From a virus: a stretch of 64,000 bases of DNA. The stretch's first letter is position 1, and the number at the start of each line of letters is the position of its first letter. The stretch covers positions 32,001 to 96,000 of the IMG/VR virus record IMGVR_UViG_3300017774_006254. One strand, written 5' to 3'. Below are positions 7,720-52,505 of this stretch, piece after piece. The notes under the pieces are model-generated. The model had not been told where the DNA came from, did not search any database, and saw only the letters and a list, made by a program, of their open reading frames with translations. The position numbers and the translations under genes were made by a program.

Positions 7720-7910
7720 CTACTCCTTCGGTTGCGTTTGACACGACGACGAGCAACTGCGTATGCCGCCCAGCTCAAGGCAACCGCTGCGACTCCAAGT
7801 GCGATTGTACCGCCGATGACAGTGTTCGCCACAGACGTGACGGTCTGCTGAATGGCATGCTCAACAGCTGGCGTGGACTGCCCAAGAGCGCGAATGTGTT
7901 GGTAGCTCAT
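7716..7910 (-). CDS. Small membrane protein (MSY family)
   Basis: MSYQHIRALGQ, TM helix, tail VKRNRRSR; ATGA coupling. Confidence 0.65.
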   Translation of the reverse strand: MSYQHIRALGQSTPAVEHAIQQTVTSVANTVIGGTIALGVAAVALSWAAYAVARRRVKRNRRSR

Positions 7911-8539
7911 TTTCGCCTGTTCCTTCGCACTCGTCCACGAGGGCTGTAAGCAAGAGACCGCGCCGTCCGCTGCGACACGTAAACGGCCGCCCCAACAAGA
8001 CCAATGGCTACCACAGCCGCAGAGCCGATGATGAGAGGCGAGGTGGGAGGTGTCAGACCAACCGTGTCTGGTGGATCTTGCGGAGATGTGCGCGGCGGAG
8101 GATCGGGGACCGGACCGACCGGATACACGTAAACGTCATCCCGAAGGGGAGGCATGATGATCCTGTATCTGCGCAGAATGATTTGTGATCGCGGGCTGAT
8201 CTCCAACGAGGCCCGAAGCAAAGCATCTCGAATGGAGGTCGCATAAGCCACAGCGGGACGCTCACTCGTCGGCCTCCAGCGCGCATACAAAAAACCACCC
8301 GTGACCCACCTGACATCAAGAACAGTCCCCATAGAAGACAGCGTAGACCGAACGATCGCTTTTGCCGTCTCAGCCTGCTCTGGGGTGATGTTCCTGACGA
8401 CCAAGTTTGCGTCGAGAGCTGGGACAAACCCATAAAGCCCAACGCCAAGCCTCGTGACGCCAACAGAGAGACCTTGGACCTCAGTTGTGTTTGCTGTCGG
8501 AATGGAAACCGGAGTTTCGCCAGAAAGTGCGTAGCTCAT
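7907..8539 (-). CDS. Membrane-anchored virion protein (MSY family)
   Basis: MSYALSG start at 8539, C-terminal TM, tail VRRNRRK. Confidence 0.65.
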   Translation of the reverse strand: MSYALSGETPVSIPTANTTEVQGLSVGVTRLGVGLYGFVPALDANLVVRNITPEQAETAKAIVRSTLSSMGTVLDVRWVTGGFLYARWRPTSERPAVAYATSIRDALLRASLEISPRSQIILRRYRIIMPPLRDDVYVYPVGPVPDPPPRTSPQDPPDTVGLTPPTSPLIIGSAAVVAIGLVGAAVYVSQRTARSLAYSPRGRVRRNRRK

Positions 8540-9102
8540 CGAAGCCTCCTGCGGCGGTTGAACGTGAGCTTGGACAGCGTCTTGATTCTCGCGTAGTTGT
8601 TCAACAAGTACCCCGCACTCACAGCGCCTGCGATACCGATGACAGCCCAAGCCATGAGCGTGTAGTTCGCCGAACGAACAAGATTTGGTTGCTCATCCTC
8701 AGAGAGCCGAGCGTACTGCGTAGGACTTGATCCCGTCAGCGCTCTGTATCGATCTTCGAGCAGGTTGTACCTGTTGACGTACTCCTGGGCCGGAGAGATC
8801 GATCCTTGCGCCCACCATGTAGAAGCCGTGTGGTTGAACGCGAGCCACTGATTTCGCAGCTCGTCCCAGTCAGCGAGAAACCGCGTGCCGACAGCGTTGG
8901 CTCGAAGCGCAGCTCGCCGTGGGATGATGTCACGGTCAAGAGACGTGATCTGCCCGTTGATCTGGTTCAACCACGCCCTGACTTCGCCAGGAAGCCAAGC
9001 CAGCCGACTCGGAGTCACCAGTTCGCCAAGAGACGAACGATTCGAGCGCATCGAGCACCCGCAACCGAGCCCATGCACGTGCGGGCGCAGTGCGTAGCTC
9101 AT
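8536..9102 (-). CDS. Membrane-anchored virion protein (MSY family)
   Basis: MSYALRPHVHGLG start at 9102, helical domain, TM, tail LTFNRRRRLR. Confidence 0.65.
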   Translation of the reverse strand: MSYALRPHVHGLGCGCSMRSNRSSLGELVTPSRLAWLPGEVRAWLNQINGQITSLDRDIIPRRAALRANAVGTRFLADWDELRNQWLAFNHTASTWWAQGSISPAQEYVNRYNLLEDRYRALTGSSPTQYARLSEDEQPNLVRSANYTLMAWAVIGIAGAVSAGYLLNNYARIKTLSKLTFNRRRRLR

Positions 9103-41705: not shown

Positions 41706-42078
41706 CGTCGAAAGCGAACCGAAGCCGTGCGCCAAGTGTCCTTATCGCAAAGACGCCCCTCTCGAACTCTGGAGCCCAGAAGAGTTCCAGAACGTGCTCG
41801 AACAGGACAAAGCGATGGTTGGGCATGTGTTCGGCTGTCACAAGTACATCAAGAGGAAGCTCGCTGGCGAAGCGACTCCTCTCTGCGCAGGGTGGGTCCT
41901 CGACCAACTCAAGCGCGACCTTCCGTCGATTGCTCTGAGACTTTTGATCGCAAAGAGCGACAACCCTCAGCAGTCGTTTGCCCAGTTGCAGTCGGTTTCA
42001 TCGGACGGCCTTGACATGTACGAAACGATCGAAGACATGTGCGCCGCAAACGGAGTTGAAGATGACCAAGATCCCTGA
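41698..42078 (+). CDS. DUF6283-like Cys-rich protein
   Basis: PCAKCPYRKD...FGCH...CAGW. Confidence 0.6.
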   Translation: MSDVESEPKPCAKCPYRKDAPLELWSPEEFQNVLEQDKAMVGHVFGCHKYIKRKLAGEATPLCAGWVLDQLKRDLPSIALRLLIAKSDNPQQSFAQLQSVSSDGLDMYETIEDMCAANGVEDDQDP

Positions 42079-42706
42079 AATGCCTCCCATCTACACGTTC
42101 ATCGGAACCAAGTTTCGCTTTCTCGACGCGGACCCGAAGGACGTCTCGCTCATCGACATCGCCCAGTCGCTTGCCATGACGTGCCGCTACAACGGCCACA
42201 GCCTCCGCCACACGTCAACGGCAGCTCATTCCGTCCGCGTTGCAGAGCGAGCGCTCCAGGAAACCGGGGTACCCGGTATCGCCTGGCTCGCGCTCATGCA
42301 CGACGCTCCCGAGGCGTACGTCGGAGACATTCCCACGCCACTCAAGCACGCGATGCGCATCGTGTGTGGGGAAAAGAAGAGCCCATTCGACACCATCGAA
42401 GACGCGGTCACCGCTGTCGTCGCGCAGGCGCTTGGACTCGACGAAAAGATCACCGGAAGATACTCGCTCAGGGAAGCCTGGGCCATTGTCAACGGTCTCG
42501 ACTACGAAGACTTCATCGCCGAAGCCAGTGTTGAGTGTCGTCAGCCAAAACGCCTGGTCCCTGAAAAAGCGATCTACCCCACCGGCCACACCGCCAAGCA
42601 AGCGCGAGCGCTGTGGCTACGTACGGCTGCCAAGTACGCCCCCACGACCGAGTTGCTTGTTCGCGTCCGAAGTGCCCAAGCGTACTTCCGAGGAGCGCAT
42701 CAATGA
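42062..42706 (+). CDS. HD-domain phosphohydrolase (YfbR-like 5'-deoxynucleotidase)
   Basis: DIAQSLA..CRYNGH, AHSV, LMHDAPEAYVGDIPTPLK. Confidence 0.85.
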   Translation: MTKIPEMPPIYTFIGTKFRFLDADPKDVSLIDIAQSLAMTCRYNGHSLRHTSTAAHSVRVAERALQETGVPGIAWLALMHDAPEAYVGDIPTPLKHAMRIVCGEKKSPFDTIEDAVTAVVAQALGLDEKITGRYSLREAWAIVNGLDYEDFIAEASVECRQPKRLVPEKAIYPTGHTAKQARALWLRTAAKYAPTTELLVRVRSAQAYFRGAHQ

Positions 42707-44487
42707 CCTTCCGTGTCTACAGGTACGGCTTGCAACCGCCCATCGAGAACGCGGAACTTGTTCGAAGCCAATTTGTCCTGGCTCACAAGTACCAGAACAA
42801 GCTCATCGAGATCGAAATTCAGCAGCGCGCAGAGGTGCGTGCTCTGTCTGCCAGGCACGGCGTCATCCCTGAGCTTGAAGCCAATGCCAAGGCTGCCGTC
42901 GACAGCGTCGACAAGCTCTTGGCAGAAATCAGGGTCCTGAAGTCGGCATCGAGAACGCGGGTCGTGCCGCAGGAACTCAAAGACCAGCTCGCCGCCGCGA
43001 AGGTAATCAAGAAGGAGACGCGAAATGCTCTCCAGGCGGCGCGCTACGAGACGCGCTCCGACACCGCGATCGCAGCCATCAGCAAGGAGATTCAGGAGAA
43101 GTACCTCGCAGCGCGCAAAGCAGCTCGTGCCGCTAACGGTCTCTACTGGGGCTCCTATCTGCTGGTCGAAGACGCAGACGACGCGCGGCGCAAGATGCCG
43201 TTCTACAAGGGCATCGAGCCGAATGACCCCCGCTTCGTGCGCTGGTCGGGTGAAGGTGCTGTCGGAGTGCAGATGCAGAAGGGGCTCCCGGTGGAAAGTA
43301 TCTCCACATCAAGGCACATTCGCATCGACCCCCGTCAGGCTCCTCCAGGAGTTGACCCTGCAAGCAAACGCTCCGCGAAGCGCTCGTACTGCACGCTCCG
43401 AATGCGCGTCGAAACGAATGATGACGCCACCAAGACACCGGTGTGGGCAGCTTGGCCTATGGTGTTCCACCGGCCCCTGCCAGAAGGCGGCGTGATCAAG
43501 CGAGCAGCCGTGCACATGAGGAAGATCGGCCCGCGAGAAGAGTGGTACGTGCTGTTCTCGGTCGATTTCAGCGGGGCTCCCGCGACTCCAGCTACAACAG
43601 AGCGAGTAGCCGTTGACATCGGATGGCGAGTGACTGAGGACGAAGGCATCTGCGTCGCCACTTGCGTCTCAGACAGCGGAGAGATCACGCGACTCGTCTT
43701 GGACAAGAAACTGCTGTCTCAGGCGAAAAAAGCGGAAGAGCTTCAGTCCATCCGAAAGAGGAACTTCAACGAAGCCATCGTAGCGCTCGTGAGCCAAGTT
43801 CACCTGGCAACCAATCCACCGGACGGGAGCGCGCCCACGATGCTGCTGCCAGAGTGGTTCCCTACGAACCTGATGCAGTGGAAGTCGGAGCAACGCTTTG
43901 CGGGCCTGGTGCACCAATGGGCGACCAATCGTTTTGAAGGCGACGAAGAGATCTTCACCGCCGCAGAAGCATGGCGCATCCACGACCGACACCTGTGGGA
44001 CTGGGAATGCAACCAGAGGTCAAAGGCTCTCCGTCACCGACGAGAGGTGTATCGAATCTTCGCGGCTCGACTTTCAAACAAGTACGCGCAGATCGTCCTC
44101 GAAGACTTCGACCTCCGGAAGGTGGCTCAAGTCCCAAGCGTTGAGAATCAAGTCGGCGACAACGAGCAGGCTCGGGCGAACCGACACTCGGTCAGCGTGA
44201 GCGAGCTGCGGCTCTGCCTGGTCAACAAGTTTGTAGACCGTGTATCCATCGTGCCCGCCGAGTTCACAACCAAGAGGTGTGCTCACTGTGGCCATCTGAA
44301 CACCTGGGACCAGGCGAAGTACGTCAGCCACACGTGCGCCAGCTGCGGTACCACTTGGAACCAAGACGAGAATGCGGCGCGCAACATGCTCGCTTACGAG
44401 AGCCCGCCTGTTGAAGCCAAAGCCCCATCCAAGGGTCGATGGATCAAAGCTAAGGAGGCGAAGAGGGAGCGAGAGGCGGCCGAGTAA
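42703..44487 (+). CDS. Cas12m-like (type V-M / TnpB-derived) RNA-guided effector
   Basis: 594 aa; long helical REC region, LYWGSY, RFVRWSGEGAVGVQMQ, RuvC-I AVDIGWR, RuvC-II VLEDFD, Zn ribbon CAHC...CASC, RuvC-III QDENAARN. Confidence 0.8.
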   Translation: MTFRVYRYGLQPPIENAELVRSQFVLAHKYQNKLIEIEIQQRAEVRALSARHGVIPELEANAKAAVDSVDKLLAEIRVLKSASRTRVVPQELKDQLAAAKVIKKETRNALQAARYETRSDTAIAAISKEIQEKYLAARKAARAANGLYWGSYLLVEDADDARRKMPFYKGIEPNDPRFVRWSGEGAVGVQMQKGLPVESISTSRHIRIDPRQAPPGVDPASKRSAKRSYCTLRMRVETNDDATKTPVWAAWPMVFHRPLPEGGVIKRAAVHMRKIGPREEWYVLFSVDFSGAPATPATTERVAVDIGWRVTEDEGICVATCVSDSGEITRLVLDKKLLSQAKKAEELQSIRKRNFNEAIVALVSQVHLATNPPDGSAPTMLLPEWFPTNLMQWKSEQRFAGLVHQWATNRFEGDEEIFTAAEAWRIHDRHLWDWECNQRSKALRHRREVYRIFAARLSNKYAQIVLEDFDLRKVAQVPSVENQVGDNEQARANRHSVSVSELRLCLVNKFVDRVSIVPAEFTTKRCAHCGHLNTWDQAKYVSHTCASCGTTWNQDENAARNMLAYESPPVEAKAPSKGRWIKAKEAKREREAAE

Positions 44488-44529
44488 TGGGCGCACGTGC
44501 ACGAGCATGGGGGACGTCTCCTGCCTGGT

Positions 44530-44685
44530 GGTAGTGCGGCAAGTGCAATCGCGAGCGCGATCACAAGAACTTCGCCAAAGCAGGACAGCCAGTTCCCACC
44601 GGCCGTATCAAAGGAAAAGTCACGAGTCCGCACGTGCAGTACAGTCGTGACCATCCGACGTGATCGCAGCACTTACACACTTCTG
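44530..44685 (+). ncRNA. Putative structured RNA immediately downstream of the Cas12m-like gene
   Basis: Nested complementarity AAGTGC/GCACTT, GCGATCAC/GTGATCGC and GTCACGA/TCGTGAC. Confidence 0.4.
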
Positions 44686-44775
44686 CGCGCACCTTTCATT
44701 CGTTCGGATGTTCCCCGACGAAGCAGTCAAGTCAGGTCTGTTTTCCGAAATGCAACTAGATCGCTGGAGAAAACG

Positions 44776-45021
44776 ATGAACACAACAAGACCATACGTGG
44801 TGAAGTCCGGAGACACACTGTCTCGAATTGCCACGGACCATGGCTTGTCTTGGCGTGCTCTCTACGACTCACAAGAGAACGCCGACTTTCGAGCGAAACG
44901 TCCGGACCCTCAGAAAATCTTCGTTGGCGACGTCATCAACATTCCAGAGAAGAATGTAGCTCTCCGCAGGCTCGGGACGGTTGCCGAGCTGGACCCGTTG
45001 TGGTCGCCGATCAAGGTCTAA
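44776..45021 (+). CDS. LysM-domain protein
   Basis: YVVKSGDTLSRIA...DPQKIFVGDVINIP; RBS GGAG. Confidence 0.85.
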   Translation: MNTTRPYVVKSGDTLSRIATDHGLSWRALYDSQENADFRAKRPDPQKIFVGDVINIPEKNVALRRLGTVAELDPLWSPIKV

Positions 45022-45035
45022 CCGCAGTACACGAA

Positions 45036-45288
45036 CTCGACGCGTCGAGGCATTGGTTGGTGGACAAGTGGCGCTCGCGTCCGAGGCGAGACAGATCCAA
45101 ACCGCTTGGAGTATCCAAGACCCGAGGACAAGCTTTGAAGGCCGCTCGGCGCCCAGCCGAGACCGTAACGGAGTTTCGGCGACAAAGACGAGACGAGATC
45201 ACCGTCCGCAAAAGCAGCTCGACGCTCCAAGTCGAGACCTGGATGCTCGCTGTGCAAGCGCAATGGCATCTCGGCGCCCAGCCGAGAC
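45036..45288 (+). CRISPR. Degenerate CRISPR-like mini-array of hairpin-AC units
   Basis: Seven hairpins of the form CTYG...CRAG-AC; CTCGGCGCCCAGCCGAGAC occurs exactly twice (45145, 45270); intervening sequences are unique. Confidence 0.5.
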
Positions 45289-45339
45289 GAAAGGATCGCA
45301 CACGAATGCGCCTTGACTGGCCAACTGTTACACTTGGCC

Positions 45340-46152
45340 ATGTCTTCACGTCAGCGCAAAACCAGCCGAAATCCCGAGTCCAAAAATCGTCGCGTAACGA
45401 TTAGACCAGGGCTAATCTCTGGGCCTGGATTCAAAGCCACCGCCTACAAGGGATCCGATCCCACCTTCAAAGGTCGTATCGCAGTTCTGCGTGGCTCCGG
45501 GATGACTGAGTTCCCCAACGTGCAGCAGCTCACTCGCATTCTGCGCGAGGAGGGCATTTCACCTTCCGCCGCTGAGCAGGCCTTTGGCTCGAAGAAGATG
45601 AAGAAGAACGGCGGCGCGGGGAAGACCGTTCGCCATGGCTACCTCAAGATCGGCGGCATGGAAGCAGCCGAGTACAAGGGTCCCGAGAAGAAGCTTACTG
45701 GCAAGATTCACATCTCGGCCCCCGGCATCAGCGCTTACAAGACCGTGAGCGAATTCCAGCAGATCGCCCAAAAAATCGGCATCGACATGGAGGACCTTGT
45801 CGCGGCGTTCGGGCACATGTTCGAACTCGAAAAGCCAGAGAAGATCGACGCCAAACTCACGTACGGACCGAAGCGCATGAAGCTTGGCCACGTTGGGCCT
45901 CGCGGCGTGAGCTTGGGGACGAAGCAGGGAAGCCTAGTCTTGCTCGATAGCCAGAGCGGTCAGATTGTCTGGGGCGTCATGGAGGAGTCCAAGGCAATTC
46001 GCAACATGGCGACGAACCGTGAAGTCTCCGTCGCAAGCGTGTTTACCAAAGCGAAGTCACTGAGGATTCCAGCACAAGCAGTCTACGACGCATTCGGGCA
46101 CATGCTGAGTGCCGAGGAGCGTCGAAAGCTTGTTACTTCATTCCATCGCTGA
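45340..46152 (+). CDS. Basic protein with three internal repeats
   Basis: Units end in EQAFG, VAAFGHM and YDAFGHM. Confidence 0.6.
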   Translation: MSSRQRKTSRNPESKNRRVTIRPGLISGPGFKATAYKGSDPTFKGRIAVLRGSGMTEFPNVQQLTRILREEGISPSAAEQAFGSKKMKKNGGAGKTVRHGYLKIGGMEAAEYKGPEKKLTGKIHISAPGISAYKTVSEFQQIAQKIGIDMEDLVAAFGHMFELEKPEKIDAKLTYGPKRMKLGHVGPRGVSLGTKQGSLVLLDSQSGQIVWGVMEESKAIRNMATNREVSVASVFTKAKSLRIPAQAVYDAFGHMLSAEERRKLVTSFHR

Positions 46153-46154
46153 CG

Positions 46155-46204
46155 TCTGTCGAAAGTAGTTGACGGCGAGATCCGCGAGAACTACTTTCGA
46201 CAGA
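46155..46204 (+). promoter_or_regulatory. Promoter inside a 16-bp inverted repeat; probable leaderless transcript
   Basis: TCTGTCGAAAGTAGTT-18nt-AACTACTTTCGACAGA; TTGACG-17nt-TACTTT; ATG at 46204. Confidence 0.7.
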
Positions 46205-46545
46205 TGACTCTGAAATCCCGGCTCAGTGCCCTAGCTGAAAAGTGCGCTGAGTCCATGCATCGGGCTGCCTGGGAAGCTCTGACTCGAACGACGGCTTTCC
46301 GTCAGAAGTTCGACGCGGTAGCCGACTCTCTGTCTCAGATCGAGATTGCGATTTCGAACGTGGAGGAAGGCGTTCTGAATCAGTTTCCGGCGAACGAACA
46401 CCGTGCCGATCTGTTGGAAGCTCTCGCGCTAATTCGCAAGACGCTGAACCTCACAAGGGAGGCCGTTGCTGGTGTTTCCGGTGAGTCGAAAGTTGTTGAC
46501 ACAGAGAGTGCTCCAACCTACAAGGTTTCGAATGAGCCTCAGTAA
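46204..46545 (+). CDS. Hypothetical helical protein
   Basis: ORF starting at the predicted +1. Confidence 0.5.
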   Translation: MTLKSRLSALAEKCAESMHRAAWEALTRTTAFRQKFDAVADSLSQIEIAISNVEEGVLNQFPANEHRADLLEALALIRKTLNLTREAVAGVSGESKVVDTESAPTYKVSNEPQ

Positions 46546-48537: not shown

Positions 48538-49383
48538 ATGAGCCCAGTCTTCTTGATCGACATCTCCTCGTACCTGCATCGCGCAATGCACGTGATTCAC
48601 GGAAAGCTTGCCTCTGAAGCCGATCCGTCAGACATCTCGTTCACCGTTCACGCAGCGAACATGCTCGCCAACACCATGTTTCGACTTCACATCGAAAGAA
48701 TGGCCGTGGTGTTCGACTCGACCGAGCCATCAGCTCGGTGCCAAGTCTACCCGCAGTACAAAGCCGACAGGAAGCCTCACACTCCTGTGTTCGCGGCCCA
48801 GATGCCTCGGTTCATGGCAGCCCTGGCTGACGTCGGAGTAAGCGTCTTCGAAGAACCTACCTTCGAAGCCGACGATATCATCGCGACTCTGGTAGGAGAT
48901 GAAAGAGTTCCGTACTCGATCGTGTCACACGACAAAGACCTGCTTGCTCTTGTCGACGATGCGTCAGAGGTGGCCGTCTACAACCCAACATCTGACAAGT
49001 GGCACCGCATGGATGACATCTTCTCCAAACTGGGAGTGTTTCCATGGCAGTTGCATGACTACATGGGACTAGTCGGAGACACGTCAGATGGAATCCCAGG
49101 CGTTCCTGGGATTGGAGCCAAGACCGCTTCAGCTCTCGTGGTGAAGTACGAAACGCTAGAACGTATCTACAGCGCGGAATGTCGCGAGCTTGTAGAAGAT
49201 GATCTGTCCAAGAAGCAGTTCTCTTCGCTTATTGAGAGCGAGGAAGTGGCTTTCTTGTCCAGGAGTCTAGCCAAGCCAATCATCTGCCCCGAGTTGATTA
49301 TGGTTGGGCATGGGCCCCTCTCTGCGCCGAGTCCCGACAGGATACGAACGGCCGTACAAGACTACGAGAGGAGGAATCGCTGA
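48538..49383 (+). CDS. 5'-3' exonuclease (PolA N-terminal / FEN family)
   Basis: LIDISS, VVFD, YKADR, FEADDII, SHDKDL, LVGDTSDGIPGVPGIGAKTA. Confidence 0.92.
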   Translation: MSPVFLIDISSYLHRAMHVIHGKLASEADPSDISFTVHAANMLANTMFRLHIERMAVVFDSTEPSARCQVYPQYKADRKPHTPVFAAQMPRFMAALADVGVSVFEEPTFEADDIIATLVGDERVPYSIVSHDKDLLALVDDASEVAVYNPTSDKWHRMDDIFSKLGVFPWQLHDYMGLVGDTSDGIPGVPGIGAKTASALVVKYETLERIYSAECRELVEDDLSKKQFSSLIESEEVAFLSRSLAKPIICPELIMVGHGPLSAPSPDRIRTAVQDYERRNR

Positions 49384-52300
49384 TGCCTTTGGTGCGGACG
49401 ACCCACAACTTCGAACTTCCGATGACGCCTCGGAGCCCAGACGTTCGTACCTGGACGCCTCAGATGGGCACGCAAGACCTCGTGTACTCGCTTGCTGTTG
49501 GTGCTTGTGCTCCGACAGCCGAGACACAACTTCAGCGGCGCGCTGTCGAGGCCGTGAGCGTTCCATTGGCCAAGTCAGGAGGCGGCTCTGTCGTCACGAT
49601 GAGACCATACCAGAACGAGGCCATCGAAGCCGTTTCAGCGGCCTGGAAGAGTGGTTCGAAGTCGCCATTGATTGTCTTGCCGACGGCTTGCCACCGTGCC
49701 GGACAAGGCGTCCTCATGATGGATGGAACCGTTAGAAACGTAGAAGACGTGCAAGTGGGAGATGTCCTGCTCGGGCCAGACTCCAGGCCTCGAAATGTCC
49801 TCAAGACGCACCGCGGGTTCGGTCAGATGTTTGAAGTCATCCCTGTAAAAGGAAAGCCCTTTGTCGTGAACGGCGAACACGTGCTCACGCTGTACCGAAC
49901 CCCCCAGAAGCCCAACGCTAAGTACCCAAGTCAAAGATCGGCCATCGTTGACGTGACGGTGAATGATGTACTGACCAAGTCAAAGACATGGCGTCACATT
50001 CACAAACTGATCCGAGCGAGCGATGTAGAGTTTTCCGTCAGAGAGGCCCCGGTCATTCCTCCGTACTTCCTCGGCCTTTACATCGCAGACGGCTCCATGG
50101 CACAGCCCAATCAAGTTGCAGTGTCCAAGCCGGACCCGGAGGTAAGAGCTGCCTGCATGGAGCTTGCGGAAAGCTGGGGACTCAACATGCGAACGGACGT
50201 CGGTGGGAGTGGTTGCCCTTCGCATCACCTCTCAGGACTCACGTCTCCAGGAAAGACTCGCGGAGACAACCATATCCTGACGGAACTTCGCAAGCTTGGC
50301 CTCATGAACATTCCCTCCGAGGAACGCTTCATACCAGACAGTTACAAGTTCGGGTCGATTGCGGTGAGAAGAGAGCTTCTGTCCGGCTTCTTAGACGGAG
50401 ACGGACATCTCCATCGAACTGACTACGACGTCATTACGAAATCGAAGCGACTGTCCGATGACATCGTCTTCGTAGCTCGGAGCCTGGGGCTTGCTTCGTA
50501 TTCCGCTCCTTGCGTGAAGGGGTGCCAGAACGGGTTCATCGGGAATTACTTTCGCGTGACCGTATCCGGGGAAACCTCAAAACTGAAACTGAGGATACCG
50601 CGCAAGCAAGCGCCTCTCAGAGCCCAGAAGAAGAATCCTCTCGTTGCTGGATTCAGCGTGAGAAGACTTGAAGAGGAGCCGTTCTTCGGCTTCACACTTG
50701 ACTCAGATCACCGATACCTGCTTGACGACTTCACGATCACGCACAATTCGGGAAAGACGATCATCTCCGCCGAAATCATGGCTCGCACGTACGCGGGCTC
50801 TGGAGAGAAGAGCCTGTTTATTGCGCATCGTGAGGAACTGCTCACTCAAACGGTCGACAAGGTAAGGCTAGTGAGTCCCAACACTCGCGTTGGGTTGGTG
50901 CAGGGGAAGATTGCAGAGTTCGGCCGCGATGTGACCGTCGCCTCGATTCAAACGGTCGGCCACAGTAGCAAGAAGAAGCTGCGTGAACTCATCGACGGCG
51001 GACCGTACAGAACCATGATCATCGATGAGTGTCATCACGCTACGGGCAAACAGTATCGCGATGTCATCTCCGCGTTGATGGAAGCGAACCCCTCGATGCT
51101 GATCATGGGAATGACAGCAACACCCGGCCGGTCCGATGGCCTAGCTCTCGATGCCGTGTTCGACTCGGTGGCATTCGAGAAGGACATCTTCTCGATGATC
51201 CGCGAGGGATGGCTCGTTCCTCCCGTTGGCTTCGCGCAGAAGATCGATGTCGACCTCGACAAGGTTGCAACAGGTAACGGTGACTACGTATTGAGTCAGC
51301 TGTCGAAATTGATGAACACGCCCAAGGTCAACCGCGCAGTTGTCGAAGCGTGGCAGACGCATGGGCTCGACCGGAAATTCATCGCCTTTGCTTGCGACGT
51401 CGCTCACGCAAAAGCCCTAGCGCAAGAGTTCAACGACAGTGGATACCCCGCAGCGGCCGTCGACGGGAAGATGAAGAAGACGGAACGCAAGAGCATACTC
51501 ACTGCATTCCGCGAAGGCGCATTGAAAATCCTCGTGAACTGCAACATCTTGATCGAGGGGTACGACGATCCAAGCGCCGAAGGAGTCCTCTTCGCGCGCC
51601 CGACACAGAGCCAGGGCCTGCACATCCAGTCGCTCGGAAGAGGACTTCGCCTGTTCCCTGGGAAGACAGAGTGCCTGGTGATCGACTGCGTTGGAAACAG
51701 CGCGAAGCACCGCCCAGTGCAGCTCGCTTCCCTCGTCGGCTTTGATCCGCAAAGGAAGTACAAGGGCTTCGCCGGGTTCGGAAACGAGGAAGAGGAAGAA
51801 ACTGAGAAGCCAGCCGAAGTAGGCGTCGACGATGCTCGACTTGGTCAAGCGTCAGAACTTGGATTCGGATTCGCTCCGCTGAAAAGCACGTACCAGTGGA
51901 GAGAAACTTCTTTGGGGTGGATCATCCAGATACCGAAGATCGGCTACTACCTAGTCGCATGGAGCGACAAGACCAAGGTGATGGCCACGATTCGCTTCTA
52001 TGACCAAAGAAAAGGGCGCAAAACAGACAAGCCTCGCGAGGTGACCCGAATGCCGATCGAGTTCGACATGGCCTATGGGCTTGTTGAAGGAGAACTTGAC
52101 CGAATGTTCCGCGCCAAAGACTTGCGACGCGAGGAGAAGAAGGACGAGACAGGCGCAGACCTCGTCTCGTTCGTCCCGCTCGATGATGGTCTGGATGAAG
52201 ACCTGTCCGTCAGAGAAGAGCAGATGCTCAAGGACGCCGAGTGGCGAAACAAGCCCAAAACAGAGAAGCAGCGAGAGTGCCTCGAATCGCTGGGCGTGAA

Positions 52301-52505
52301 GATGAAGACGATGCCCGAGCTTGCTGGAGAAGCCAGCGACCTAATCACCATTATGCGCGTTGAGAAAGAGCTGAAGATGCGCGTGCCCGCGACGCTGAAG
52401 CAGCTGAACTTCCTTCGCTTCCACGGTATCCCGTTCTCCGAAGACATCACCAAGGGCCAGGCCGCCAAACACATCTGGCTTCATCGAAAGGCGACTGAGG
52501 TATGA
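49383..52505 (+). CDS. SF2 (DExH) helicase containing an intein
   Basis: RPYQ, LPTA|intein|SGKT, IIDECHH, MTATP, EGYD, QSLGRGLR. Confidence 0.92.
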   Translation: MPLVRTTHNFELPMTPRSPDVRTWTPQMGTQDLVYSLAVGACAPTAETQLQRRAVEAVSVPLAKSGGGSVVTMRPYQNEAIEAVSAAWKSGSKSPLIVLPTACHRAGQGVLMMDGTVRNVEDVQVGDVLLGPDSRPRNVLKTHRGFGQMFEVIPVKGKPFVVNGEHVLTLYRTPQKPNAKYPSQRSAIVDVTVNDVLTKSKTWRHIHKLIRASDVEFSVREAPVIPPYFLGLYIADGSMAQPNQVAVSKPDPEVRAACMELAESWGLNMRTDVGGSGCPSHHLSGLTSPGKTRGDNHILTELRKLGLMNIPSEERFIPDSYKFGSIAVRRELLSGFLDGDGHLHRTDYDVITKSKRLSDDIVFVARSLGLASYSAPCVKGCQNGFIGNYFRVTVSGETSKLKLRIPRKQAPLRAQKKNPLVAGFSVRRLEEEPFFGFTLDSDHRYLLDDFTITHNSGKTIISAEIMARTYAGSGEKSLFIAHREELLTQTVDKVRLVSPNTRVGLVQGKIAEFGRDVTVASIQTVGHSSKKKLRELIDGGPYRTMIIDECHHATGKQYRDVISALMEANPSMLIMGMTATPGRSDGLALDAVFDSVAFEKDIFSMIREGWLVPPVGFAQKIDVDLDKVATGNGDYVLSQLSKLMNTPKVNRAVVEAWQTHGLDRKFIAFACDVAHAKALAQEFNDSGYPAAAVDGKMKKTERKSILTAFREGALKILVNCNILIEGYDDPSAEGVLFARPTQSQGLHIQSLGRGLRLFPGKTECLVIDCVGNSAKHRPVQLASLVGFDPQRKYKGFAGFGNEEEEETEKPAEVGVDDARLGQASELGFGFAPLKSTYQWRETSLGWIIQIPKIGYYLVAWSDKTKVMATIRFYDQRKGRKTDKPREVTRMPIEFDMAYGLVEGELDRMFRAKDLRREEKKDETGADLVSFVPLDDGLDEDLSVREEQMLKDAEWRNKPKTEKQRECLESLGVKMKTMPELAGEASDLITIMRVEKELKMRVPATLKQLNFLRFHGIPFSEDITKGQAAKHIWLHRKATEV
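49689..50747 (+). mobile_element. Intein with LAGLIDADG homing endonuclease (353 aa)
   Basis: Starts CHRAGQ and ends ITHN before Ser; LAGLIDADG-like motifs FLGLYIADG and LLSGFLDGDG. Confidence 0.92.

Follow-up and report, generated by a model that had tools for sequence, protein, structure and literature searches.

A virus-borne Cas12m effector and two compressed repeat arrays that very probably supply its crRNAs

The stretch of DNA analysed here (64,000 nucleotides (nt), hereafter the window) comprises bases 32,001-96,000 of the 161,502-bp IMG/VR virus record IMGVR_UViG_3300017774_006254. It carries a gene for a 594 amino acid (aa) protein which an initial annotation took for an RNA-guided effector resembling Cas12m, accompanied by a structured RNA and an atypical CRISPR mini-array. 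The locus raises the question of what such an effector is doing in a viral genome: to which family does it belong, where do its guide RNAs come from, and does it cut the DNA to which it is led or simply hold on to it? To the first two parts the answer is, with high confidence, that the gene specifies a Cas12m effector of type V-M and that the genome contains cognate CRISPR RNA (crRNA) arrays. The answer to the third part, and the mechanism as a whole, are put forward with less assurance.

By sequence and by predicted fold the 594-aa protein is a full-length Cas12m, squarely inside the family. The reading frame (42703-44487, +) is open, and the LYWGSY and RWSGEGAVGVQ motifs on which the first assignment was based are both read in its product, the former as GLYWGSY. 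Using phmmer against the sequences of the PDB, the best match was 23vw_A (E 1.8e-80), which covers the full length (residues 6-566) and is a D-E-D protein, that is, one with an Asp-Glu-Asp RuvC triad, bearing the PDB title 'CRISPR-associated DNA-binding protein Cas12m'. Cas12m2 (E 6.5e-32; residues 3-565, again full length), GoCas12m (E 2.3e-28) and UnCas12m4a (6e-22) were also matched. The matches to TnpB and Cas12f proteins were confined to residues ~510-565, with TnpB 8bf8 reaching E 0.42 in the zinc ribbon only, and Pfam and NCBIfam detected nothing but this C-terminal TnpB/Cas12f-type zinc-ribbon region. An AlphaFold2 model built with 28 homologues (mean predicted local distance difference test score, pLDDT, 86.4) contains a long helical REC insertion, including helices at 17-144, together with RuvC and a TNB zinc ribbon, as in Cas12m. 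The expanded REC region proposed earlier is thus seen in the model, and Foldseek gave it a template modelling (TM) score of 0.75 to both Cas12m2 (8hhl) and GoCas12m (8pm4) versus 0.34-0.42 to Cas12f and TnpB. The three RuvC acidic residues (D305, E467 and D555) and the zinc-ribbon cysteines (C526, C529, C545 and C548) are present, the CxxC...CxxC cysteines being invariant or nearly so in homologues. Taken together, the full-length matches and the TM score of 0.75 argue for Cas12m and against the suggestion of a lineage between TnpB and Cas12m.

The first repeat lies ~580 nt downstream of cas12m, in a run of hairpins with the pattern CTCGxx-loop-xxCGAG-AC; scanned for over the genome, this motif was also clustered at 143.7-146.1 kb (-). 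A covariance model recovered five repeats at 45064-45288 with E-values from 2e-7 to 6.5e-4, so that the mini-array predicted from the sequence is borne out; a search of the window with filters off gave no credible match besides these five. When the model was run over the 161.5-kb genome, two loci only were found, plus two weak stray matches, and no solitary repeats were dispersed at gene junctions elsewhere in the genome. The second locus is an array of the same system, with covariance-model matches spanning genome positions 143,682-146,051 (-). It lies on the strand opposite to that of cas12m, at a distance of 68 kb from this gene and 47.7-50.1 kb beyond the end of the window, upstream of an ORF (open reading frame) of 1594 aa. 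At its 5' edge stands a 43-nt leader-like sequence which is identical in three phages and unique in the genome. Two related phages, designated L003 and L004, carry this second array in the corresponding position, again upstream of a homologue of the giant ORF.

The repeats of these arrays diverge in sequence while the hairpin and a pseudoknot are kept by covariation. Each repeat forms a handle of ~26 nt in which a pseudoknot stem of 3 bp is combined with a hairpin of 5-7 bp ending in GAGAC. Base pairs were counted in 35 aligned units from this genome and from a further relative, L005. The 3-bp helix, which pairs the 5' flank of the repeat with the first bases of the loop, was paired in 91.9% of cases with 16 double-sided changes, as when flank GC and loop GC are replaced by flank GT and loop AC. 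This helix had played no part in the selection of units, whereas the pair counts for the hairpin stem are circular, units having been chosen for having a stem. The whole-structure measures were reached by none of 500 shuffles. The geometry of hairpin plus pseudoknot is that solved for the crRNAs of PmCas12m and MmCas12m2 (PMC10442227; bioRxiv 10.64898/2026.03.26.714355).

The arrays are unusually compressed. From the end of one hairpin to the start of the next the modal gap is 23 nt, and between consecutive 29-position covariance matches the median distance is 13 nt; since some 6-10 nt upstream of each hairpin form part of the repeat, the spacers are ~13-17 nt and the units ~41-48 nt long. The regular layout, with near-identical repeats of ~36 nt and spacers of ~30-36 nt, was not found in either array. 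In solved Cas12m complexes the heteroduplex is 17 bp, and a 17-nt guide is optimal for PmCas12m (PMC10442227; bioRxiv 10.64898/2026.03.26.714355), for which reason the units look like nearly mature crRNAs set end to end. In the mini-array (Table 1), the L004 unit homologous to the degenerate repeat has a better stem, and repeat 5 has a 'spacer' that extends into the 5' region of the following gene, whose ATG is probably that at 45340.

Table 1. Features of the Cas12m locus and its arrays (window positions unless marked as genome positions)
Feature	Position	Strand	Basis or remark
HD-domain (YfbR-like 5'-deoxynucleotidase) gene	41978..42706	+	Pfam PF12917, PF13023; start codon uncertain
cas12m (type V-M effector), 594 aa	42703..44487	+	phmmer vs PDB, AlphaFold2 model, Foldseek
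RuvC-I Asp305 codon (VDIGW)	43615..43617	+	
RuvC-II Glu467 codon (LEDF)	44101..44103	+	
TNB zinc ribbon (C526, C529, C545, C548)	44278..44346	+	Pfam PF07282, E 2.2e-9
RuvC-III Asp555 codon (QDEN)	44365..44367	+	
Decayed small zinc-ribbon ORF (supposed 'structured RNA')	44487..44777	+	TAG at codon 16, later TGA
Small LysM-domain gene	44776..45021	+	PF01476 in L003/L004 orthologues; GGAG 6 nt upstream of ATG
Whole mini-array, about 6 units	45064..45310	+	adjoins cas12m, downstream of LysM
Repeat 1 (CTCGC-loop-GCGAG-AC)	45064..45092	+	covariance model, 26 bits
Repeat 2 (CTTGGA-gta-TCCAAG-AC)	45095..45121	+	covariance model, 23.2 bits
Repeat 3 (GGC..CTCGGC-GCCca-GCCGAG-AC; pseudoknot GGC/GCC)	45135..45163	+	covariance model, 36.6 bits
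Degenerate repeat (TTCG...CGAG-AC)	45165..45194	+	hairpin scan only, below model threshold
Repeat 4 (CTCGAC-gctccaa-GTCGAG-AC)	45208..45238	+	covariance model, 35.6 bits
Repeat 5	45260..45288	+	covariance model, 35.6 bits; L003/L004 alignment
Second array, ~33 repeats, same system	genome 143,682-146,099 (loci L002, L055)	-	motif scan, covariance model

The spacers also carry a record of their own evolution. Thirty spacers of the second array were compared with the two relatives, recurrence being defined as at most three mismatches in 16: eight of the 30 recur in one relative and five in the other, while the relatives share 11 between themselves; the remaining units have been inserted, deleted or replaced between phages. 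In the mini-array the spacer columns are 89-92% identical to those of the relatives, as against 63-78% at the four-fold degenerate sites of the flanking genes (HD, LysM and downstream) and 51% at those of cas12m, and some second-array spacers are identical at 16/16 positions while the adjoining repeat differs at several. Conservation of spacers beyond that of four-fold sites or of the adjoining repeat argues for selection on some guide sequences, in a small sample in which the last mini-array 'spacer' overlaps the 5' region of the next gene. As for cas12m itself, its protein identity to L003 and L004 is similar, 86-89%, despite the low identity to both at four-fold sites, and it may be that the gene has recombined differently from its neighbours or that its synonymous sites change faster than theirs.

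The 5' half of the second array is interleaved with longer inserts (genome ~144,643-144,842 (-) and 145,351-145,617 (-)). One insert is an ORF of ~70 aa (MIDKTSEEFQ...) which starts 21 nt past a repeat and reads through the next one. Its differences from a copy at locus L058 fall mostly at third codon positions, for which reason a genuine gene probably lies within the array here. ATG starts 4 of 36 spacers.

Homologues of this Cas12m number more than 300, and 45 IMG/VR loci carry one. At 13 of these 45 (25-46% identity), hairpins are clustered downstream on the same strand, mostly with a regular period of ~61-75 nt. The hairpin of these distant viral relatives is CTCxxx-loop-xxxGAGAC, as here, and the 5' flank of the repeat was complementary to the loop in the eight of their arrays inspected. 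Compressed arrays are found in closer relatives, namely L005 (53% identity), L003 (89%) and L004 (86%), the latter two sharing the synteny of the window. In L005 two compressed arrays of four units (7798-7949 and 8914-9044) flank a gene whose NPPF motif suggests a DNA methyltransferase, and in the first of them a 5' flank of 13 nt (TTCACCACAACCG) is conserved, so that no more than 11-18 nt are left for each spacer. One viral contig of 152.9 kb, IMGVR_UViG_3300032770_000005 (L007 and L035), has two Cas12m homologues ~49 kb apart.

How does this compare with known systems? The described V-M proteins and structures (MmCas12m2, GoCas12m, MsCas12m and PmCas12m; 8hhl, 8pm4 and 23vw) were taken from PMC10442227, PMC11013384 and bioRxiv 10.64898/2026.03.26.714355. 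Shared with them are a size of ~600 aa, the WED/REC/RuvC/TNB fold, a repeat ending in a 3' hairpin followed by AC with a pseudoknot to the 5' flank, a D-E-D site (one of the known active-site variants), and the lack of cas1/cas2 and of a detected trans-activating crRNA (tracrRNA) candidate beside the array. The claim that cas1 and cas2 are missing was upheld by a Pfam search of the complete genome, in which neither Cas1 (PF01867) nor Cas2 (PF09827) was found; Cas4 was not searched. Such absence is the norm for V-M, the systems of which have arrays without other cas genes and are often on plasmids (PMC10691335); a 2024 review describes them as strongly plasmid-enriched and present in some prophages. 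Unlike these, the present system resides on a 161-kb virus and has a second array at 68 kb from the gene in addition to the adjoining one, with repeats of ~26 nt that differ from one another and spacers of ~13-17 nt instead of ~30-36 nt.

Phage copies of Cas12m have been reported. MvCas12m of myxophage MV-1 (610 aa; D305/E463/D555) is claimed as the first phage Cas12m in a preprint of September 2026 (bioRxiv 10.64898/2026.09.14.751636). It resembles the present protein in being phage-encoded, in its triad, in its adjoining array, in the lack of cas1/cas2/cas4 and in that no protospacers were found, but MV-1 is described as temperate and its array is regular (one consensus repeat, eight spacers), whereas two compressed, degenerate arrays are found here. 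Rctr197k (GenBank KX853510, 2016) encodes an effector 34% identical over 95% of its length, which is annotated as 'similar to transposase' and next to which a CRISPR of 1.5 kb is annotated; this array, too, lies just downstream on the same strand with the repeat end CTCAGA-loop-TCTGAG-AC, but its repeat is a regular 36 nt with a period of ~72 nt. Given the preprint and the GenBank phage, a phage-borne Cas12m is not in itself new. The effector is of a known kind; compressed arrays conserved in structure only, with very short spacers, were not found described in the literature compared.

The interval between cas12m and the mini-array had been read as part of a single RNA locus (44488-45310) beginning with a structured RNA. 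This does not hold, since a LysM gene intervenes, and the structured RNA at 44488-44775 is rejected: its folding energy does not improve on that of shuffled copies (z +1.10, with 173 of 200 folding equally well), and what is found there is an ORF in decay. It aligns to a 90-aa CxxC...CxxC ORF which is whole in L004, has a frameshift in L003 and is broken in the window by the stops TAG and TGA, and which may be a dispensable accessory gene that is being lost. No inverted repeat complementary to the repeats, as expected of a tracrRNA or anti-repeat, was present within 44300-46300, and the only Rfam match was a tRNA in another part of the window.

With these elements a mechanism can be proposed, and we consider it, as a whole, somewhat better than an even proposition: the virus would carry a type V-M CRISPR-Cas12m system without an adaptation module. 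Both arrays would be transcribed and cut into short crRNAs which would need little or no 3' trimming, because the Cas12m heteroduplex is only 17 bp. The crRNAs would guide Cas12m to DNA flanked by a protospacer-adjacent motif (PAM), where tight binding would block transcription or replication with no cutting. The guides appear to be inherited and not freshly acquired, since the repeats have diverged, as expected without homogenisation by Cas1-Cas2, and related phages share some of the spacers in conserved form. The targets would lie outside the phage genome, in the host chromosome or in competing mobile elements. A more specific version, which is possible though we hold it doubtful, has an inherited, non-adaptive set of ~40 pre-trimmed minimal crRNAs (~26-nt handle plus 13-17-nt guide), selected on RNA structure and, in a core subset of the units, on the guide sequence as well, bringing Cas12m to fixed host or competitor loci during infection, with some repeats perhaps serving as handles on phage transcripts.

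Several observations weigh against this proposal. A protospacer was found for no spacer, whether in the phage's own genome or in the relatives fetched. Some units are nearly spacerless, with gaps of 2-14 nt between hairpins in this genome and in L005, and spacers of 13-17 nt are at or below the 17-bp optimum, a 12-bp duplex being only an intermediate state in Cas12m2 (PMC10442227). No mechanism was identified for the turnover of spacers between relatives, and a scan for sigma-70-like promoters over 44400-45500 found none. The D-E-D triad is kept by 106 of the 120 nearest homologues, which suggests that the site does something, and this could be catalysis. As regards the viral nature of the replicon, the Pfam models TerL_ATPase and HK97-capsid, both for virion hallmarks, had no match in the genome.

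The conserved triad is the starting point of an alternative in which this is a nuclease-active Cas12m lineage whose RuvC site cuts the target, with the DNA of the host or of a competitor being destroyed and not silenced. The intact site had been offered at the outset as a hint of a nuclease; the triad is present both in this Cas12m and in those 106 homologues, and Omura et al. suggested the possibility that D-E-D clades hydrolyse DNA by a two-metal mechanism (PMC10442227). However, four D-E-D orthologues bound DNA in a PAM-dependent manner in vitro and left double-stranded DNA uncut (PMC11013384), for which reason an intact triad is no sign of a nuclease; 23vw, the closest solved homologue and also D-E-D, was itself deposited as a DNA-binding protein. 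The triad has moreover been lost in the other 14 of the 120 (5 NED, 3 DEE, 2 NDD, 2 NAD, 1 NPD and 1 NHD), the RuvC-I position being D in 109 and N in the other 11. Such repeated D-to-N loss within the clade shows catalysis to be dispensable, and gradual inactivation of the RuvC site has been noted for the V-M subtype (PMC10691335). In Cas12m2 the RuvC pocket is a binding site for the non-target DNA strand (PMC10442227), and a strand held there could explain why the site is conserved. Cutting is, in our judgement, unlikely; most likely the effector binds DNA without cutting it.

A second alternative concerns the arrays. They could produce mainly handle-only RNAs which are not DNA guides but decoys soaking up host Cas12m, as RNA anti-CRISPRs do, or tags for binding or processing on phage transcripts. 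The very short spacers, nearly absent from some units, the empty target searches, the small ORFs interleaved with the 5' part of the second array and the position of the last mini-array repeat just upstream of the next gene would all fit. The viral mini-arrays, solitary repeat units and RNA anti-CRISPRs described to date (PMC11656645) are likewise short virus arrays without adaptation genes. Those, however, borrow the Cas proteins of the host and copy host repeats, and belong to viruses without a cognate effector, whereas this virus encodes a matching effector, ~580 nt upstream of the first repeat, from a family linked throughout to regular arrays of ~61-75-nt period. Several spacers are also more conserved than neighbouring synonymous sites and the adjoining repeat, which would be needless in a pure decoy, and dispersed solitary repeats at gene junctions are lacking in the genome. 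We give the handle-only explanation an outside chance, and prefer to see in the arrays a source of DNA guides.

Where, then, would the guides act? Self-regulation, in which they would target the phage's own promoters or genes and time their expression in the manner of TldR, draws on the fact that the guides look hard-wired and conserved, that there is no adaptation module and that the effector lies in a same-strand cluster with genes for nucleotide metabolism and replication. Against it, PAM-proximal matches of at least 12 nt between the 36 spacers and the genome outside the arrays numbered zero with 0.7 expected, and blastn-short of the spacers against the phage's own genome returned only chance 14-mers, so that we think self-regulation very improbable. 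Wider searches had the same outcome: the spacers matched nothing but homologous array units in all relatives fetched; 130 spacers from the regular arrays of IMG/VR relatives had no matches in any of the sequences gathered for the analysis; and three of these 130, scanned across IMG/VR, hit their own arrays only. By our estimate 596 Gb of sequence would contain hundreds of chance copies of a given 16-mer, which makes an exact collection-wide match uninformative.

A TnpB of the usual IS200/IS605 or IS607 kind, accompanied by an omega RNA, has in its favour only that Pfam and NCBIfam see just the common TnpB/Cas12f C-terminal region. This reading is rejected as having virtually nothing left to it, in view of the full-length identity and fold of Cas12m, a single-copy gene without Y1 transposase, a fixed syntenic position with a 4-nt gene overlap in three phages, and repeat arrays in place of a single omega RNA. 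This agrees with the earlier remark that no transposase or insertion sequence (IS) is nearby: cas12m is single copy in the 161.5-kb genome, its synteny is conserved, and the Y1 transposase was not found in the whole genome, the serine recombinase not having been searched genome-wide.

The gene context was as first described in that cas12m stands behind thyX and HD. Its ATG shares 4 nt with the stop of the HD gene (caATGAcc), an arrangement read in the sequence and found also in L003 and L004, and thyX lies on the same strand farther upstream. Among the genes neighbouring cas12m, Pfam gave matches for thyX and HD alone. The cluster of thyX, HD and replication genes is on one strand, and the position of cas12m in it is fixed and syntenic in three phages. 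Direct terminal repeats are present in the record, and CheckV puts its completeness at 100. Most ORFs of the genome are without family assignment, the recognisable genes being those for ThyX, HD, a MoxR/VWA pair, an intein-bearing helicase, a SNF2 helicase, methyltransferases and one tRNA. The first of these helicases (49383-52505; 1040 aa) is a superfamily-2 protein (ResIII/Helicase_C) conserved in relatives; the intein that splits it contains Hint and LAGLIDADG homing-endonuclease domains. PHROGs and Pfam gave no structural annotation among 30 large ORFs, and 24 kb of the window had no megablast match among GenBank phages. That the replicon is a virus is taken from its classification in IMG/VR, from CheckV, and from its terminal repeats and gene content.

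As to what the finding means, little is gained from the effector, since D-E-D variants, copies in phages and V-M systems on mobile elements had all been described before. The ~40 repeat variants that occur naturally in one genome amount to a mutational scan of the crRNA features which Cas12m requires (a pseudoknot stem of 3 bp, a hairpin of 5-7 bp and GAGAC), and are relevant to the compact Cas12m base editors and CRISPR interference (CRISPRi) tools in development. CRISPR finders which expect near-identical repeats and spacers of at least ~30 nt are likely to miss or fragment such arrays. If the inherited set of minimal crRNAs were true, it would be a natural hard-wired CRISPRi regulon and would define a minimal Cas12m scaffold. 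Conserved short guides without adaptation genes pose the question of what a large phage silences in its host or its rivals.

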